Below, piece after piece: positions 3,315 to 32,972 of a DNA stretch of 48,488 nt (positions are counted from its first letter, which is position 1; every line of letters starts with the position of its first letter). Location of the stretch: assembly GCA_030549895.1 (NCBI GenBank), contig JAUQQM010000003.1, forward strand, positions 1-48,488, read 5' to 3'. A program made the translations under genes and the position numbers. The notes under the pieces are model-generated. The model was given only the letters and a program-made list of their open reading frames with translations. It was not told the DNA's origin and searched no databases. The DNA is from Patescibacteria group bacterium (GTDB lineage: Bacteria; Patescibacteriota; Minisyncoccia; UBA6257; HR35).

Positions 3315-4436
3315 ATGAATTTGTGGATAATTCATTGGTCAGAAATTGGATTAAAAGGGAAAAATAGAAGTTTTTTTGAAAATAAATTAAAAGAAAATAT
3401 TGAAAAACAAACTGGCTTTAAAGTTAAAAAAATAAAAGGAAGATTTATTGTTGAAGGAGACTTAACTGAGATGATAAATAAAATTCCTGGAATAAGTTAT
3501 GGATTAAAAATAATTGGAGTTTTTGAAAAACCAGAAGAAATTGTCAAAAGTTTAAATTTCAAAGAAAGTTTTACTTTTAAAGTCATCACCAAAAGAGCTG
3601 ATAAAGATTGGCCAGAGACTTCAATAGAAATCTCGAAAAAATTAATGAAACTCATTATGGAAAAATTTCCTTATCTTCAAGTTGATTTTAAAAATCCTCA
3701 AAAAAAGATATATGTCGAATATTTTGAAAAAAAATTTTGGGTAGGACTTGAAAAAATAGTTGGAATTGGTGGTCTTCCAGTTGGAAGTTCTGGTAAAGGC
3801 CTTTCTCTTCTTTCCTGTGGTTTTGACTCACCTGTCGCCAGTTTTTTAATGCTAAAAAGAGGAATGAAATTAGATTTTTTACATTTTTACTCTTACCCTC
3901 AAACTAGTCTTCTTGAAAAAGAAGCCGCTCTTGAAATTTTTAAAATTCTCTCGAGCTATCAACCACAATCTTGTCTTTATCTTTCAAACATCCTTGAAGT
4001 TCAAAAATATCTTTTCAATAATGTGCCTAAAAAATACCTTACCCTTTTTTATAGGAGAGTAATGTTTAAAATAGCAAAAAAATTAAAAGAAGAAAAAAAT
4101 TTAGATGCTTTAATTACGGGTGAAAGTCTAGGACAGGTTGCCTCACAAACGATTCAAAATATCTTAGCTACAACTAAAGATTTAGATGTTTTAATTTTAA
4201 GGCCTCTTATTGGTTTTAATAAACAGGAAATAATAGATATTTCTTATAAAATAGGAACTGGAAAGATTAGTGAGAAAAATTTTCAAGACTGTTGCCTTCT
4301 TTTTAATCCTAAAAATCCTATCACAAAAGCAAGTTTTGAAAAAATAAGAGAAATAGAGTCCAGTCTTACAAAATTAGATGAGTTGATTCAAAAATCTTTT
4401 GAGGAAATTGAAGTTTACCACTGGCCAGGAAAGTAA
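3315..4436 (+). CDS. thiI: tRNA 4-thiouridine synthase ThiI-like (THUMP + PP-loop ATPase)
   Basis: 373 aa. N-terminal WSEIGLKGKNRSFFE, PP-loop-like LLSCGFDSPVA, and GESLGQVASQT. No rhodanese domain. Confidence 0.75.
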   Translation: MNLWIIHWSEIGLKGKNRSFFENKLKENIEKQTGFKVKKIKGRFIVEGDLTEMINKIPGISYGLKIIGVFEKPEEIVKSLNFKESFTFKVITKRADKDWPETSIEISKKLMKLIMEKFPYLQVDFKNPQKKIYVEYFEKKFWVGLEKIVGIGGLPVGSSGKGLSLLSCGFDSPVASFLMLKRGMKLDFLHFYSYPQTSLLEKEAALEIFKILSSYQPQSCLYLSNILEVQKYLFNNVPKKYLTLFYRRVMFKIAKKLKEEKNLDALITGESLGQVASQTIQNILATTKDLDVLILRPLIGFNKQEIIDISYKIGTGKISEKNFQDCCLLFNPKNPITKASFEKIREIESSLTKLDELIQKSFEEIEVYHWPGK

Positions 4437-4615
4437 GGTAAAAGTTTCATCACTCGTGCTCTTTTGACTGCTTGAGCATACCTTCTTTGATGTTTAGCAC
4501 AAAATTGCGTGTATTTTCTGTGCTTTATTTTCATTCCAGCAGAAATAAATTTCTTTAAAATATCAACTTCTTTCCAGTCAGGTTCTTTTTTATTTTTACA
4601 AAACCAGCAATTCAT
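4415..4615 (-). CDS. rpsR: 30S ribosomal protein S18
   Basis: 66 aa. CWFC ... DILKKFISAGMKI..R..TQFCAKHQRRYAQAVKRARVMKLLPY matches the S18 signature. Confidence 0.85.
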   Translation of the reverse strand: MNCWFCKNKKEPDWKEVDILKKFISAGMKIKHRKYTQFCAKHQRRYAQAVKRARVMKLLPYFPGQW

Positions 4616-4950
4616 TATACAAATTCAATCTTGGCAAGCTCACTTCCATCTTTTCTGAACTTGCCAAGCTTTATAACTCTCACATAACCGCCGTTTCTAT
4701 CTTTATATTTTTCTTTCAGTTCATAAAAAACTTTAAAAGCTATTGGCTTTTTAAAAAGACTTAAAAGATACCTAAGAGATGAAAGTCCATTCCTTTTTGC
4801 TCTACTTATTATTTTTTCGATATAACTTTTTAAAGACTTTGCTCTAGTGACTGTTGTTGTAATTCTTCCATGTTCAATCAAGTTAGAAGCTAAAATCCTC
4901 ATGAAAAGCTCTCTTTGATCTTTTTTTCTATGAAATTTTCTCTTTTTCAT
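4615..4950 (-). CDS. rplQ: 50S ribosomal protein L17
   Basis: 111 aa. LASNLIEHGRITTTVTRAKSLKSYIEKIISRAK ... GGYVRVIKLG.RKDGSELAKIEFV. Confidence 0.9.
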   Translation of the reverse strand: MKKRKFHRKKDQRELFMRILASNLIEHGRITTTVTRAKSLKSYIEKIISRAKRNGLSSLRYLLSLFKKPIAFKVFYELKEKYKDRNGGYVRVIKLGKFRKDGSELAKIEFV

Positions 4951-4958
4951 GAAATAAA

Positions 4959-4967
4959 ATTATAACA
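4959..4967 (-). promoter_or_regulatory. extended -10 TGTTATAAT, 8 nt upstream of the L17 ATG
   Basis: The plus strand reads ATTATAACA. The same 9-mer recurs before rpsS, infA and the KH-protein gene. Confidence 0.5.
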
Positions 4968-5253
4968 TATTAAGAAAAATCAAGAACAAATAGAAAACAA
5001 AAATAAAGTTAAAAAAAATATTTAGGTTCAAAATAAAATCCCTTAAATTTTTTATAAAATAAAAAACAAAAAAATTTAAAAAATTAACCAAGAGAGCAAC
5101 ATTTAAAATTTCAAAAATCTTTTCAGTTGGTCCAATTTCAAAAAAACCATTCAAAAAATTAAACCGAAGAGCCGCAATTCCAGGCTTAAAATTAAAAGAA
5201 AGAATTAAAATTAAAAAAAATAAAATTGCATTAAAAATTATTTTCCTCTTCAT
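4960..5253 (-). CDS. hypothetical small membrane protein
   Basis: 97 aa with F/L/I/N-rich hydrophobic segments. Overlaps the alaS 3' end by 23 nt. No recognisable family. Confidence 0.35.
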   Translation of the reverse strand: MKRKIIFNAILFFLILILSFNFKPGIAALRFNFLNGFFEIGPTEKIFEILNVALLVNFLNFFVFYFIKNLRDFILNLNIFFNFIFVFYLFLIFLNML

Positions 5254-6523
5254 GCTTACTTATTTGACGGTGTTCTTGAAAAAGTTCTTCAAATCTAATT
5301 TGGTCCTCTTCTGCCCACAAAATCTTTTCTTCTTTTAAAAGTTCTTTAGTAAGCTCTAAAGGAAAACCATAAGTTGAGAAAAGTAAAAATGCTCCTTTCG
5401 CTTTATCTTGAATTATTCTTTCTTTTTCTTTTTCAAATATTTTTATTCCCCTTTCTAAAATAGCCTCAAATTTTTCTTTTTCTTCTTCAAAAACTTCATA
5501 AATTTTTTCAAAATTATCTATCTCAGGATAAGATAATTTGTAAAATTCAATTACTTTTTGGATCAAAATTTTATCTGATTTTGCTGGTAAATTAAGCTTT
5601 TTGAATTTAAAGAGAAATCTTCTTATTATTCTTCTTAAAACATAACCAGCTCCAACATTAGAAGGCAAAAGTCCATCAGCTATCAAAAAAACAATACCTC
5701 TTAAATGGTCTGCTAAAATTCTTTGATCTTTTATATTTCCTTGATTTTCTTGAGGAATTAATGGCTTTAAAACCTTAAATATACTTTCAAAAGCACTCGT
5801 CTGAAAAATTGTCTCTTTTTTCTCAAAAACTTTAAGTAATCTTTCATAACCCATTCCAGTATCAACTCCTGGACTTTGAAGACGTTCTAATGTTCCATCT
5901 GGAAAACAATAATACTCATTAAAAACTAAATTCCAAACTTCAATGCCATCTATATAAAACTCAACTGTTGGACCACATGGTCCTTCTTTGCCTGTTGGCC
6001 CCCAAAAATTATCTTCTTTAGAACATCCTTTAAGATGACTTTCTTGAAAACCAAGTTCTTTTAAAATTTTGTAACTTTCCTGGTCCTGAGGAATATTATC
6101 TTGGCCAACAAAAAAAGTAACGTAGTCTATTTTAAGATTAAGTTCTTTAACTAGAAAATCTAAAGCCCACTTAATAGCTGATTTTTTAAAATAACCAGAA
6201 CCAGAAAAATCATCTGGATCATCACTCCCAATTGGACCAAAAGAAAAATTACCAAGCATCTCAAAAAAAGTAAGATGTCTCTCATCACCAACTTCTTCGA
6301 TATCAGTTGTTCGAAAACATTTTTGACAAGAAGCAACTCTTTGAGTGCCAAAATCTTTTAAAGGGTCTTTTTTTAAAGTAAAATATTCTTTAAATTGCTG
6401 CATTCCAGCCGTGGTAAGAAGAACAGATGGATCATTTTTTGGTAAAAGAGAAGATGAGGCAACTATTTTATGTCCCCTTTCTTGAAAAAACCTTAAAAAT
6501 CTTTCTTTTAGCTGAAAATACAT
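5231..6523 (-). CDS. alaS: alanyl-tRNA synthetase, catalytic core only (no editing or C-Ala domains)
   Basis: 430 aa. FLRFFQERGHKIVASSSLLPKNDPSVLLTTAGMQQFK, HLTFFEMLGNFSFG, GPCGPTVEFY, VDTGMGYERL, GAGYVLRRIIRR, TYGFPLELT. It ends where the E. coli 461-residue active fragment ends. Confidence 0.85.
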   Translation of the reverse strand: MYFQLKERFLRFFQERGHKIVASSSLLPKNDPSVLLTTAGMQQFKEYFTLKKDPLKDFGTQRVASCQKCFRTTDIEEVGDERHLTFFEMLGNFSFGPIGSDDPDDFSGSGYFKKSAIKWALDFLVKELNLKIDYVTFFVGQDNIPQDQESYKILKELGFQESHLKGCSKEDNFWGPTGKEGPCGPTVEFYIDGIEVWNLVFNEYYCFPDGTLERLQSPGVDTGMGYERLLKVFEKKETIFQTSAFESIFKVLKPLIPQENQGNIKDQRILADHLRGIVFLIADGLLPSNVGAGYVLRRIIRRFLFKFKKLNLPAKSDKILIQKVIEFYKLSYPEIDNFEKIYEVFEEEKEKFEAILERGIKIFEKEKERIIQDKAKGAFLLFSTYGFPLELTKELLKEEKILWAEEDQIRFEELFQEHRQISKHEEENNF

Positions 6524-6532
6524 ATTAATCTG

Positions 6533-7078
6533 TTAAATTTTTATGGGGAAGCCGAGGAGTTCAAAAACTTTAATTTTTTCTTCTTTATTTTTAGCTTTAA
6601 CAACCACATTTACTCCAAGACCAAAATTATAATGAACTCTCTCGGAAATTGTCTCTGGAAAAACACTTACCTCTCTAAAACCAAAATTCAAATTCCCTTC
6701 CTTATCGAAATGTTCTTTTCTAATTCCCTTAAAGTCTTTGTACCTTGGTAAAGCATAAATAAGGAGTCTGGCAAGAAAATCATACATTCTTTTTCTTCTC
6801 AAAGTAACTATTACACTTACTGGCATTCCTTTTTTAAGTTTAAAACTTGCAACTGATTTTTTTGCCTTTACAACTTTAGGCTTTTGGCCAGAAATCATTG
6901 AAAGAACCCAACTTGCTTCTTCAACGATTTTATCTGCCTGAGTAGGGTTTGAGGTCACAAGCTTTCCAATGCCAATATTAAGGACTACTTTTTCGATTTT
7001 AGGCAATTGAAGTTTATTTTTGTAATTAAATTCCTTTTGTAGCTTTTCTTCTAATTCTTTTTTTAAATCTATTTCCAT
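6533..7078 (-). CDS. rplE: 50S ribosomal protein L5
   Basis: 181 aa. LPKIEKVVLNIGIG ... ISGQKPKVVKAKKSVASFKLKKGMPV ... NLNFGFRE. Confidence 0.9.
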   Translation of the reverse strand: MEIDLKKELEEKLQKEFNYKNKLQLPKIEKVVLNIGIGKLVTSNPTQADKIVEEASWVLSMISGQKPKVVKAKKSVASFKLKKGMPVSVIVTLRRKRMYDFLARLLIYALPRYKDFKGIRKEHFDKEGNLNFGFREVSVFPETISERVHYNFGLGVNVVVKAKNKEEKIKVFELLGFPIKI

Positions 7079-7080
7079 GG

Positions 7081-7401
7081 TTAAGTTATTTTACTTTTAC
7101 ATTTTTTGCAGTATCTATATTTTTCTTCGCCCTCTATTAGAAAACCAACTCTTGTTGGTTTTTTGCAATTAGGGCAGATAAGTTTTACATTTGACCAAGA
7201 AACTTTTCGAGGAATAGCTACAATTTGTCCTTTTTCACCTGCTCTTTTAGGCTTTAAATGTTTTTTTACCAAATTAAGTCCTTCAACTATTACTTTTTGT
7301 TCTTTTGGAAAAACTTTAATAACCTTACCAGTTTTAAGCCTGTCTTTACCTTTTATCATTAAAACTAAATCTCCTTTTTTTATCTTTTGCATATTAGACA
7401 A
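7081..7401 (-). CDS. rplX: 50S ribosomal protein L24 (with C-terminal CxxC...CxxC)
   Basis: 106 aa. KIKKGDLVLMIKGKDRLKTGKVIKV...KVIVEGLNLVKKHLKP, then CPNCKKPTRVGF...YCKKCK. Confidence 0.85.
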   Translation of the reverse strand: MSNMQKIKKGDLVLMIKGKDRLKTGKVIKVFPKEQKVIVEGLNLVKKHLKPKRAGEKGQIVAIPRKVSWSNVKLICPNCKKPTRVGFLIEGEEKYRYCKKCKSKIT

Positions 7402-7696
7402 TTTCTTTTATCAGAACTTCATCAAAATAAAGTTTTGTTCCTATTTTTTTATGATATCTTGTCTTTGGTTTAAACTTACCAACAACTATCTTTTCTTTAA
7501 TCTCTCTTATCACTTCACCAATAACTTTATTTGGAAGGTATGGTTGACCTATTTTCAGCTCTTCACCATCAAAAATAAGTAAAACCTTATCAAATTCAAC
7601 AATTTTGTCTTTTTTATTCTTTATTTTTTTTATTTTTATTTTATCTCCAGGACTAACTAAAAATTGATTTCCTCCTGTCTCTATTATGGCTAACAT
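7394..7696 (-). CDS. rplU: 50S ribosomal protein L21
   Basis: 100 aa. MLAIIETGGNQFLVSPGDKIKI ... EFDKVLLI ... GKFKPKTRYHKKIG. Confidence 0.85.
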   Translation of the reverse strand: MLAIIETGGNQFLVSPGDKIKIKKIKNKKDKIVEFDKVLLIFDGEELKIGQPYLPNKVIGEVIREIKEKIVVGKFKPKTRYHKKIGTKLYFDEVLIKEIV

Positions 7697-7699
7697 GTT

Positions 7700-8398
7700 T
7701 TAGGAAATTTTTATTAAATTAAATTGATGAACTAAAATATCTATAGCCTGATTGTAAGCTTCGATTGGATCAATCGTCCCATCAGTTTCAATATAAATCT
7801 TCAAAAAATTATAATCTGTTCTCTCACCAATACGCATATTCTCAACTTCAAAATTAACCTTTCTTACTGGAGAAAAGATAGCATCCAAAAAAATAGCATC
7901 TGTCTCTGGAGAATTTTTTCTTATTTCTTCAGCGCTTACAAAACCAATACCTTTTTCAACTTTCATTCTCATTTTTAAAGATGCTTTCTTGTCAGTAAGT
8001 GTGGCTATATGAAGTTCTGGATTGACAATTCGGCAATTAGAAGGAACTGTAATGTCTCCTGCCTTTACTTCCACTTCTCCTTTTGCTTCCAAGTAAATTT
8101 CTTGTGGTTCAGAGGTAAGCATCTCTATTCTTACCTGCTTTAAGTTAAGAGTTATTTCTAACACATCCTCAAGAACGCCTGGAAGAGTAGAGAATTCATG
8201 CAAAACATTTTCTATTTTAACTGTGGTAATTGCTGCTCCAGGAATAGAAGAAAGTAAAATCCTTCTTAAAGCATTACCTACTGTTACCCCATAACCTGGA
8301 TAAAGTCCTTTTATACCTATAAGAACAGAATTTTTTTCTCTACTTAAAAGTTGAATATTTTGAGCTATAAAAATTTTGTTGGTAATAATCTGATCCAT
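7700..8398 (-). CDS. rpoA: DNA-directed RNA polymerase alpha subunit, N-terminal domain only
   Basis: 232 aa. GYGVTVGNALRRILLSSIPGAAIT, VLHEFSTLPGV.EDV, ETDGTIDPIEAYNQAIDILVHQF. The stop falls where the linker and C-terminal domain would begin. L21 starts 4 nt later. Confidence 0.85.
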   Translation of the reverse strand: MDQIITNKIFIAQNIQLLSREKNSVLIGIKGLYPGYGVTVGNALRRILLSSIPGAAITTVKIENVLHEFSTLPGVLEDVLEITLNLKQVRIEMLTSEPQEIYLEAKGEVEVKAGDITVPSNCRIVNPELHIATLTDKKASLKMRMKVEKGIGFVSAEEIRKNSPETDAIFLDAIFSPVRKVNFEVENMRIGERTDYNFLKIYIETDGTIDPIEAYNQAIDILVHQFNLIKIS

Positions 8399-8411
8399 AA
8401 TTTAAAAATAA

Positions 8412-8429
8412 AACCAACAAAAGTTGGTT
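8412..8429 (-). terminator. weak hairpin plus U-tract between rpsD and rpoA (possible attenuator)
   Basis: Minus strand reads TAACCAAC-TTTT-GTTGGTT followed by TTATTTTTAAATT and then the rpoA ATG. The stem is 5-7 bp and AT-rich. Confidence 0.3.
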
Positions 8430-9042
8430 ATCTTCCGTAAAATTCTACTATTAAAGAAAAATTAAACGGTAATTTTAATTCTTCTAAAATTGGCTCTTTA
8501 ATAAGTTTTCCTTCTAATTTTTCTTTATCAAGCTCTAAAAATGACGGTGGTTTATATCTTTTAATTCTTTCCCTAATTCCTCCAAAAAGTCCATTTTTAA
8601 GACTTTGTGGTCTTATAGAGATAACATCGCCAATTTCTACCAGGTAGGATGGTCTATCAACTCTTTTGCCATTAACAAAAATATGACCATGAACAACTGC
8701 CTGTCTTGCCTGGGGTCTAGAACTAAAAAATCCTAATCTATAGACAATATTGTCAAGTCTTCTTTCTAAAATTTTAGCTAAGGCTTGAGGGGTTGGTTCT
8801 GGCATTTTCTCTGCCATAAGAAAATATCTTTTCATTTGTCTTTCTCTTAAAAGATAATAAAACTTTACTTTCTGTTTTTCAATAAGTTCTTTACCATATT
8901 CAGAAAGAAGTCTTATCTTGGCACCATGCTCTCCAGGTCTTGTTCTCCTTCTGGTAAGAGCACATTTAGGAGAAGCGCAACGATCATTGAGTAAAAGCTT
9001 CTGGCCATACATTCTACAAAGTTTACATTTATATTTCAGCAT
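8428..9042 (-). CDS. rpsD: 30S ribosomal protein S4
   Basis: 204 aa. N-terminal Cys cluster CKLC...C..PKC, SEYGKELIEKQKVKFYY, RLDNIVYRLGF..SR.QARQ.V.HGHI.VNG. Confidence 0.9.
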   Translation of the reverse strand: MLKYKCKLCRMYGQKLLLNDRCASPKCALTRRRTRPGEHGAKIRLLSEYGKELIEKQKVKFYYLLRERQMKRYFLMAEKMPEPTPQALAKILERRLDNIVYRLGFFSSRPQARQAVVHGHIFVNGKRVDRPSYLVEIGDVISIRPQSLKNGLFGGIRERIKRYKPPSFLELDKEKLEGKLIKEPILEELKLPFNFSLIVEFYGR

Positions 9043-18420: not shown

Positions 18421-18903
18421 ATGATAAAAAATTTTTTCAAAAAAATCTCTAAAAAAGCTTTAGCTCATTGTGATATTCCCTGTGGTATATATGAACCAGT
18501 TATTGCCAAAATAGCTGCCAAAACAGTCTTAAGAATGTGCCTTCAATTAAAAGAAATACCTTTACCAGATGACCTTAAAAATAAAGATCAAATTTTAATT
18601 TATCTTAACCAGATAACAAGAAGGATAAATATAAAAGAAGAACATGCTGAAATTGTTAAAAAGGAATTAAGAATTCTTTGGGGAGATTTCTTTAAAAAAG
18701 AACACTTAGAAAAATATCCTGAATTAGTTGATCTTTTTTGGCAAGGATTTAAAATAGCATCAAAAGCAAAACAAAGTGTCGATCCTGAAGTAGCTCAAGA
18801 ACTTTGCCAAATTGTTGACAAAATAGCTCAAATATTTTACCAGGTTAAAAATGATCCTCAAAGATATAATGCCTATCTTGAAATTACTGAAAAACTTTTC
18901 TAA
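18421..18903 (+). CDS. sodN: nickel-containing superoxide dismutase precursor
   Basis: 160 aa. A 15-aa propeptide, then the Ni-hook HCDIPCGIYEP. Downstream LWGDFFKKEHLEKYPEL and SVDPEVAQEL parallel Streptomyces NiSOD. Confidence 0.85.
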   Translation: MIKNFFKKISKKALAHCDIPCGIYEPVIAKIAAKTVLRMCLQLKEIPLPDDLKNKDQILIYLNQITRRINIKEEHAEIVKKELRILWGDFFKKEHLEKYPELVDLFWQGFKIASKAKQSVDPEVAQELCQIVDKIAQIFYQVKNDPQRYNAYLEITEKLF

Positions 18904-19153
18904 AAAAATATTTTTCGTCAAAATTGAAGGCTTAAGTTGTTTTCCTGAAATTTTACCAGAAAAAATTTATCTTGTTCTAGATATCAAGCCAAAAATTGGT
19001 GATTTTATTGTCTTTAAAGATGAAAGAGAAATTTTTGTAAAAAAATTAAAGAAAATAAAAGATAACTTCTTAATCTTAGAAGATAGTTTCAAAAAAGAAT
19101 ATAAAATAGAAAGAGAAAAAGTTTTAGGAAAAATAGTTTTAAAAATTACCTAG
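18851..19153 (+). CDS. sodX: SodX-like NiSOD maturation protease (S24/S26 family); start uncertain
   Basis: Up to 100 aa. VKIEGLSCFPEILP (Ser nucleophile context G.S..P.L), GDFIVF, VKKLKK (general-base Lys context). Immediately follows sodN. Possible starts at 18851, 18869 and 18878. Confidence 0.6.
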   Translation: MILKDIMPILKLLKNFSKKIFFVKIEGLSCFPEILPEKIYLVLDIKPKIGDFIVFKDEREIFVKKLKKIKDNFLILEDSFKKEYKIEREKVLGKIVLKIT

Positions 19154-32333: not shown

Positions 32334-32346
32334 AATATTTTATTTG

Positions 32347-32652
32347 TGGAGGTGGCGGGAATTGAACCCGCGTCCAGGAAAAGTAGGTTAAAAATTCTAC
32401 GGGCGTAGTGAGTTTGGATACTTTTACAGGTGAAAAACTCACAAAACCCTGTAAAAGTTTACGGTTGGAAGTTTTAGCAAAACTGAGCGCCGTAAAACCA
32501 CTCAGTTTTGCTTGCAAGGAATTTAAAAAATTCCTTGCCTTGAAAATTTTTTTAAGTTAAGCGTAGACGGCAGTTTCTTAAGCCACTTTGAAGGCGTGGC
32601 GACCTTCCCGCCTTTTTAACCTATACTTTTCCTGTCGAATCCTTTCACCCCC
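32347..32652 (-). ncRNA. ssrA: tmRNA (transfer-messenger RNA)
   Basis: 5' end is GGGGGTGAAAGGATTCGACAGG. 3' end is GGACGCGGGTTCAATTCCCGCCACCTCCA. The acceptor stem has a G3-U70 wobble. P2 helix is CAGGAAAAGTA.AGGTTAAAAA / TTTTTAACCTACTTTTCCTG. PK1 is GGCGGGAAGGTCGCCACGCCTTC. About 306 nt. Confidence 0.9.
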
Positions 32653-32660
32653 TTTTTAGT

Positions 32661-32972
32661 TACTGAGGTGGCCCATAAGCCGGCTTCTGTTTATGAGACT
32701 ATAACTCTGGGTTAAAAATTACTTTTTAACTCAAGCGGCTCGTAGCTTAAAAGCTACACGGCCTTGCACCCAAGAGCTAGGAACCAAAAGCTTTAGGTCA
32801 CCCTAAAGCTTTCATCTAATAACCAAGAAAAGATTTTCTTGGCTATTAGATACGTTTCACTTTACTTCGTCTCTGTGGTCCCTAGAAAAAATTACTTTTT
32901 TCTGGCTTTCGCCAGCTCCAAATGGGTGGCCGGACTTTCCTCCCTTTAAAGGGCAGTCTCTTGGGCCACCTC
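32661..32972 (-). ncRNA. rnpB: RNase P RNA (bacterial type A-like, compact)
   Basis: P1 is GAGGTGGCCC / GGGCCACCTC. P4 strands are GGGAGGAAAGTCCGGCC and ACAGAAGCCGGCTTAT. Also GGGTGCAAGGCCGTGTAGC. About 310 nt. Confidence 0.85.

Follow-up and report, generated by a model that had tools for sequence, protein, structure and literature searches.

Alanyl-tRNA synthetase (AlaRS) is known for failing to exclude serine and glycine. Its editing activity, treated as nearly indispensable, is kept across the three domains of life, is duplicated as AlaX, and mild defects in it lead to neurodegeneration in mice. We know of no aminoacyl-tRNA synthetase (aaRS) editing function that is regarded as more universally conserved. 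Mycoplasma AlaRS retains editing; the PheRS, LeuRS and ThrRS of Mycoplasma are reportedly editing-deficient. In the split AlaRS of Nanoarchaeum equitans and in free-standing AlaX, the functions of AlaRS are spread over shortened polypeptides, with editing on a second gene. Engineered AlaRS fragments aminoacylate tRNA-Ala as well as G3:U70 microhelices.

Compact forms also exist in nature. The small-AlaRS of CPR and DPANN consists of the catalytic, ATL and editing domains (bioRxiv 10.1101/2023.05.29.542759). A mini-AlaRS from Tupanvirus (TuAlaRS; Antika et al. 2023) can rescue yeast and charges tRNA-Ala; its authors describe it as the one natural aaRS that consists of nothing but the aminoacylation domain (PMC10036535). 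The G3:U70 pair is read by two residues, E. coli N303 and D400, and TuAlaRS is still G3:U70-dependent despite altered canonical recognition residues (PMC10036535). Full-text literature searches turned up no description of a patescibacterial AlaRS that lacks editing.

Here we describe such a protein, encoded in a 48,488-nucleotide stretch of DNA from a Patescibacteria group bacterium; this whole stretch, as analysed, is referred to as the window. Our reading, to which we assign a probability of roughly 80%, is that the 430-aa product of alaS would be the organism's sole, functional alanyl-tRNA synthetase, pared down to the aminoacylation core by loss of editing, with its errors either tolerated or handled by a factor not yet recognised. 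The features on which the discussion draws are:

5231..6523, (-) strand: alaS, a 430-aa mini-AlaRS with catalytic and tRNA-recognition (ATL) domains only (PF01411)
6533..7078, (-) strand: rplE (L5), part of the alaS operon and 9 nt upstream of that gene (PF00281, PF00673)
4960..5253, (-) strand: small hydrophobic ORF of 97 aa in another frame, overlapping the 3' end of alaS by 23 nt
4615..4950, (-) strand: rplQ (L17), next after alaS and the small ORF in the downstream direction and followed by rpsR (PF01196)
32344..32652, (-) strand: tmRNA, the second AlaRS substrate (Rfam RF00023, 112 bits, E 4e-43)

The alaS frame runs from an ATG start to a TAA stop, just as the first-pass annotation had placed it. 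PF01411 (tRNA-synt_2c) is the sole Pfam match of the product (E 5e-104), with protein residues 5-428 on profile positions 2-434 of 552, and the same search gave no match to tRNA_SAD or DHHA1 within the 430 aa. This agrees with the initial description of a class II AlaRS core that lacks both the editing domain and C-Ala. The TIGR00344 alaS equivalog is covered at just positions 2-431 of 847 and scores under its cut-off; with only half of the model matched, this is expected for a half-length protein. In a local alignment residues 4-420 pair with residues 7-434 of E. coli AlaRS, and the C-terminus falls near E. coli residue 444. The end point had been equated with that of the 461-residue E. coli fragment, which needs correcting: the protein is coextensive with the crystallised 441-residue fragment.

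The predicted structure is in keeping with these boundaries. An AF2 model of the mini-AlaRS (pLDDT 93.4, pTM 0.90) has high confidence as far as residue 427; superposed on 3hxu, the AlaRS441 fragment of E. coli, it gives a TM of 0.87 and an rmsd of 2.3. Against 3hxu, 1riq and 5knn, all of them engineered fragments of the catalytic core, the TM values are 0.82-0.88 at 32-35% identity. The catalytic domain is present with its class II motifs and its alanine/ATP pocket residues. As a natural protein with the aminoacylation domain only, the 430-aa product is a mini-AlaRS; it is not a small-AlaRS, which combines catalytic, ATL and editing domains, the last of these being absent here.

Is a protein of this size likely to be active, and what would it charge? 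In E. coli structures the alanine/ATP pocket comprises R69, W170, N212, V214, D235 and G237 (E. coli numbering); all six, together with N303, are invariant in 103 minis. Since the amino-acid pocket is unchanged, we infer that catalytic activity persists and that serine and glycine continue to be misactivated. The tRNA-recognition domain is present too. Its Asn is kept (N289), and the Asp equivalent to D400 is Ser383 in the window's protein. Of the 103 minis, 98 have Thr, Ser or Ala at this position; small forms have Glu, Gln or Asp there, and 63 of 67 long forms have Asp. Given this replacement, the mode of tRNA recognition may differ from that of the textbook.

The substrates follow the usual rule. 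Three tRNA-Ala genes (UGC, CGC and GGC) lie on contig C5, each with G3:U70 and A73. Among 41 tRNAs no others combine the two, so that with this confinement to tRNA-Ala the alanine identity rule is intact; the tmRNA also carries both. Missed by ARAGORN and detected by Rfam, the tmRNA has an acceptor stem (ends read directly) with G1-C72, G2-C71, G3:U70 and discriminator A73, and the G3-U70 pair ascribed to it at first sight is thereby borne out. Next to the tmRNA, 8 nt away and in the same orientation, lies the RNase P RNA (32661-32972, -). Because a C-Ala domain is missing, and by analogy with TuAlaRS and the engineered fragments, the enzyme is presumably, indeed most likely, a monomer that would read tRNA-Ala and tmRNA by the acceptor stem alone (G3:U70, A73), a mode shown for TuAlaRS.

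The short form is not a peculiarity of one assembly. It occurs in 25 of 25 genomes of a Patescibacteria (Parcubacteria) family, the window's genome included, and two of these genomes are single-contig or closed (634 and 680 kb). In the other 24 the AlaRS open frame measures 412-450 aa, compared with 553-642 aa among the order's 16 sister families. All 24 relatives have one full-length AlaRS gene apiece, the G023 copy being read as two pieces via a TGA, and the window's genome (470,788 bp in 8 contigs, 88.4% complete) has a single PF01411 match, the 430-aa protein itself. Public databases hold about 90 protein clusters of 421-441 aa with PF01411 only; their source genomes are named Candidatus Parcubacteria, Patescibacteria or Minisyncoccia, and some of the proteins lie on contigs of 556-680 kb. 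The short forms share a common end point directly after a conserved H-x-x-I-S-K helix, and 83 alignment columns are invariant (n=35 sequences).

The sister enzymes reveal where this form comes from. They are about 590 aa long and end in a 160-residue domain that carries HTATH and CGGPH motifs (HxxxH/CxxxH) and matches tRNA_SAD (PF07973). In two trees built on the ~430 residues common to mini and small forms, the family's minis make up one clade (support 98 and 99) nested among the small-AlaRS of the same order. The mini-AlaRS of this family is derived from a small-AlaRS by loss, and the nesting means that the family lost its editing domain once. The ancestor of this one Parcubacteria family would thus have dropped an editing domain of ~160 residues from a small-AlaRS of ~590 aa that was already C-Ala-less, C-Ala being missing across the whole class before the editing domain was lost. 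The figure of about 400 absent residues given by the first-pass annotation is therefore right in that both the editing domain and C-Ala are missing, and too large for what this lineage itself lost, which is ~160 residues. The first branch inside the mini clade unites the window's protein with its three nearest database relatives.

Outside the family clade, minis are found in f47 (two genomes), f66 and f80 and among several metagenomic representatives. These sequences point to independent loss of the editing domain, at the same junction, in three or more additional lineages of the class; in the tree they are separate from the family clade, and they may also be independent of one another. Two traits that might have set the minis apart were rejected. 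A 13-residue insert after GNFSFG is present in the mini and also in 23 of 97 small forms, and there is no extra positive charge to compensate for lost tRNA-binding domains, the recognition domain having a net charge of +5 in minis as against +4 in the small-AlaRS.

What happens to mischarged tRNA-Ala in such a cell? Serine and glycine would not be cleared in cis, nor in trans by AlaX or ProXp, both absent from the family. PF04073 (YbaK/INS/ProXp) is absent from 41 of 41 genomes of the order, and AlaX was found in none of the 25 family genomes, of which two are closed and the window's is 88% complete. A tRNA_SAD domain (PF07973) does occur once in the genome of each of the 24 relatives, in an ORF of about 600 aa. 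The one examined, in G024, is a ThrRS by domain content (tRNA_SAD, class II core and HGTP anticodon domain). A search of the 25 family genomes with the editing domain taken from a sister family's small-AlaRS gave only two weak matches, in frames of 594-611 aa, the size of ThrRS, and the one in G024 is the confirmed ThrRS. The three other mini-AlaRS lineages likewise have at most one tRNA_SAD ORF, of ThrRS size. The known editing domains are absent from the mini-AlaRS family.

Two side observations concern other synthetases. Genome G088 of the mini-AlaRS lineage f66 is 99% complete and has zero tRNA_SAD matches; its ThrRS may likewise be without an editing domain. Contig C5 of the window's genome (G000) encodes a 411-aa class II synthetase (L020:1411-2646, +) with the core and HGTP anticodon domain and no INS/tRNA_edit domain.

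With known editing gone, the cell would either tolerate some Ser-for-Ala (and Gly-for-Ala) mistranslation or use a factor not yet recognised; the majority of family members have a divergent DTD-like deacylase that may clear Gly-tRNA-Ala. A stronger version of the latter idea, in which the proofreading of tRNA-Ala passed in trans to a DTD-like deacylase or some other unrecognised protein upon loss of the editing domain, making the system compensated and not error-prone, we regard as unlikely. PF02580 (DTD) is found in 19 of 24 genomes of the family and in none of 16 sister families of the order; the corresponding counts are 4/301 in a class-wide and 35/401 in a phylum-wide sample. Three of the four class-wide positives have a mini-AlaRS (f1, f47) and the fourth a small-AlaRS. 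The link between DTD and mini-AlaRS reaches a family-level Fisher p of about 0.004-0.03, resting on two lineages. On the other side, the mini lineages f66 and f80 are without DTD, which leaves two of four mini lineages positive, and among 34 DTD-positive genomes in other classes of the phylum, the 31 whose AlaRS is whole on its contig have frames of 604-772 aa, the length of enzymes that bear an editing domain. A general partnership of DTD with mini-AlaRS is hence only partly upheld.

The sequences of these DTDs are unusual in themselves. Their Pfam scores are 69-139 bits, with one at 193, compared with 150-205 for other Patescibacteria DTDs. The signature motifs of DTD are -SQFTL- and -NXGPVT- (PMC5802732). 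Family members read S(Q/N/E)ITL or PN(I/V)TL and N-x-G-P-(I/V/N)-(N/S), keeping the Gly-Pro; one canonical and one intermediate sequence are exceptions. The homologues lie outside the window, at the relatives' loci L034-L051 and L024:1965-2393. In 10 of the 19 genomes the gene is directly upstream of thrS, and lepA, dtd and thrS are adjacent in relatives. This arrangement does not extend to the window, where genes for Ni superoxide dismutase, S24-like peptidase, S1 protein and FtsH come after lepA, and DTD was not found in the window's 88%-complete genome by Pfam model, tblastn or family HMM. The Ni superoxide dismutase (PF09055, E 3e-41; 18421-19153, +) comes directly after lepA and is overlapped by the S24-like peptidase ORF.

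As to substrate, DTD clears Gly-tRNA-Ala efficiently (PMC5409826), and the discriminator base steers DTD (PMC6097841). The discriminator in the window's genome is A73 in tRNA-Ala and U73 in all tRNA-Gly. Known DTDs reject L-amino acids, so that Ser-tRNA-Ala, the more harmful product, would stay uncleared. The divergent DTD-like deacylase is best treated, as a hypothesis, as a candidate partial substitute for the lost editing. We would place a little short of even odds on the broader proposition that there are either whole free-living or episymbiotic lineages without any Ser-tRNA-Ala proofreading, or a DTD-like protein that serves as a new trans-editor, its substrate range retuned to mischarged tRNA-Ala the way ATD's was in animals.

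It is very unlikely that the enzyme is simply split, with an editing half or an AlaX encoded in the 12% of the genome that is unassembled. The assembly does lack thrS, although tRNA-Thr genes are present, so at least one essential gene must lie in the unassembled ~12%, and a factor could be hidden there. For this reason the absence of a trans-editing factor from the window's organism is inferred from its relatives. Within the 88%-complete genome itself, profile searches detected neither tRNA_SAD (PF07973) nor DHHA1 (PF02272), nor was a separate AlaRS editing half found there or in the 24 relatives, single-contig genomes included; the three other mini-AlaRS lineages have no such gene either. 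The question of a free-standing AlaX or split C-terminal half, raised with the first description of the locus, thus has a negative answer within what is assembled of the family's 25 genomes. An editing protein of new fold, outside the reach of homology searches, is a possible counterpoint to our reading of a sole AlaRS that edits neither in cis nor with known partners.

Another scenario makes the protein a paralogue with a different function, for example the transfer of amino acids to an acceptor other than tRNA, with a host or a partner cell providing alanylation. NCBI indeed names the short proteins 'alanine--tRNA ligase-related protein', and a symbiotic way of life is presumed for these bacteria. 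We hold this to be more improbable still: no family genome has a second AlaRS homologue, three tRNA-Ala genes that bear the identity set are retained, and all catalytic residues as well as N303 are kept. In addition, the gene sits inside a ribosomal-protein operon. Its placement between rplE and rplQ is as originally noted, with the 97-aa ORF intervening on the rplQ side, and the order rpsD-rpoA-rplU-rplX-rplE-alaS-small ORF-rplQ-rpsR is kept in a relative with a 68% identical AlaRS (L027/L028). As a family-wide context, rplE-alaS-rplQ was rejected, being kept in the closest relatives only and not in other genera.

The surroundings have some peculiarities of their own. Over window positions 4415-9042 (-), rpoA and rplQ enclose rplU, rplX, rplE and alaS plus a small membrane ORF, an unusual order. 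The rpoA product (7700-8398, -) has 232 aa only, consisting of the RNA_pol_L and RNA_pol_A_bac domains, and the alpha C-terminal domain (PF03118) was not found anywhere in the 88%-complete genome. In the relative L027 rpoA encodes 241 aa, likewise with RNA_pol_L and RNA_pol_A_bac.

The chance that a longer alaS was cut by a frameshift, premature stop or misassembly is negligible: a T-run follows the stop codon, but length and end point are conserved in ~90 protein clusters from independent assemblies, which excludes frameshift and sequencing error, 90 C-termini of small-AlaRS, used as tblastn queries, detected no trace of an editing domain in any frame of the 1 kb downstream, and both the invariant columns and the model that stays confident to residue 427 speak for an intact protein. 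Genome-wide, the same 90 C-termini returned only chance hits, in PNPase and a glycerate-kinase-like gene. The 97-aa ORF was ruled out as a frameshifted AlaRS tail. It matches no Pfam or NCBIfam model and bears no similarity to the small-AlaRS C-termini, and a 105-aa homologue (33% identity over 67 aa, E 4e-6) follows alaS in the relative with the 68% identical AlaRS. It is, as first suggested, an unrelated hydrophobic protein in another frame, and a conserved one.

Taken together, the observations describe a cellular lineage with a mini-AlaRS as its only alanine-charging enzyme, and at least three further lineages likewise. What NCBI lists as a related protein is these genomes' only candidate for a real alaS. 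It can now be tested how much Ser/Gly-for-Ala mistranslation such cells bear, or what else proofreads their tRNA-Ala. Should lineages without Ser-tRNA-Ala proofreading exist, they would break the editing function that is regarded as the most universally conserved among aaRS. Natural, compact scaffolds that are predicted to use the acceptor stem only, and whose G3-contact residue is changed, would also be useful for studying the G3:U70 operational code.

How does this enzyme relate to the systems described so far? The small-AlaRS is the direct ancestor type, with ~45-53% identity to the mini over the first ~430 residues, and like the mini it is without the beta-barrel and C-Ala domains. It retains the HxxxH/CxxxH editing domain, whereas the mini ends ~20 residues before the point where that domain would start. 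To Mycoplasma there is a likeness in kind, a reduced-genome bacterium in which aaRS proofreading has been lost and mistranslation is presumably tolerated, but other synthetases are concerned there. The split AlaRS of Nanoarchaeum equitans and AlaX differ in that they supply editing from a second gene, and no such gene was found in the mini-AlaRS family. The engineered fragments (E. coli AlaRS 1-441, 3hxu, and 461N; A. aeolicus AlaRS453, 1riq; human 1-455, 5knn) have the same extent and fold; these, however, are laboratory truncations whose parent enzymes carry editing and C-Ala domains in vivo.

The closest natural counterpart is TuAlaRS, and here the differences are instructive. TuAlaRS is viral, comes from a eukaryotic host's enzyme and acts beside the full-length AlaRS of the host, while the mini described here is bacterial and the sole AlaRS. 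Of the two residues that contact G3:U70, the Asn is retained in this protein and the Asp alone is replaced. Since the mini clade lies within the bacterial small-AlaRS of its own order, its truncation is convergent with that of TuAlaRS and does not reflect common descent. The published natural mini-AlaRS is viral (PMC10036535); what is new here is a convergent, cellular, sole-copy one.
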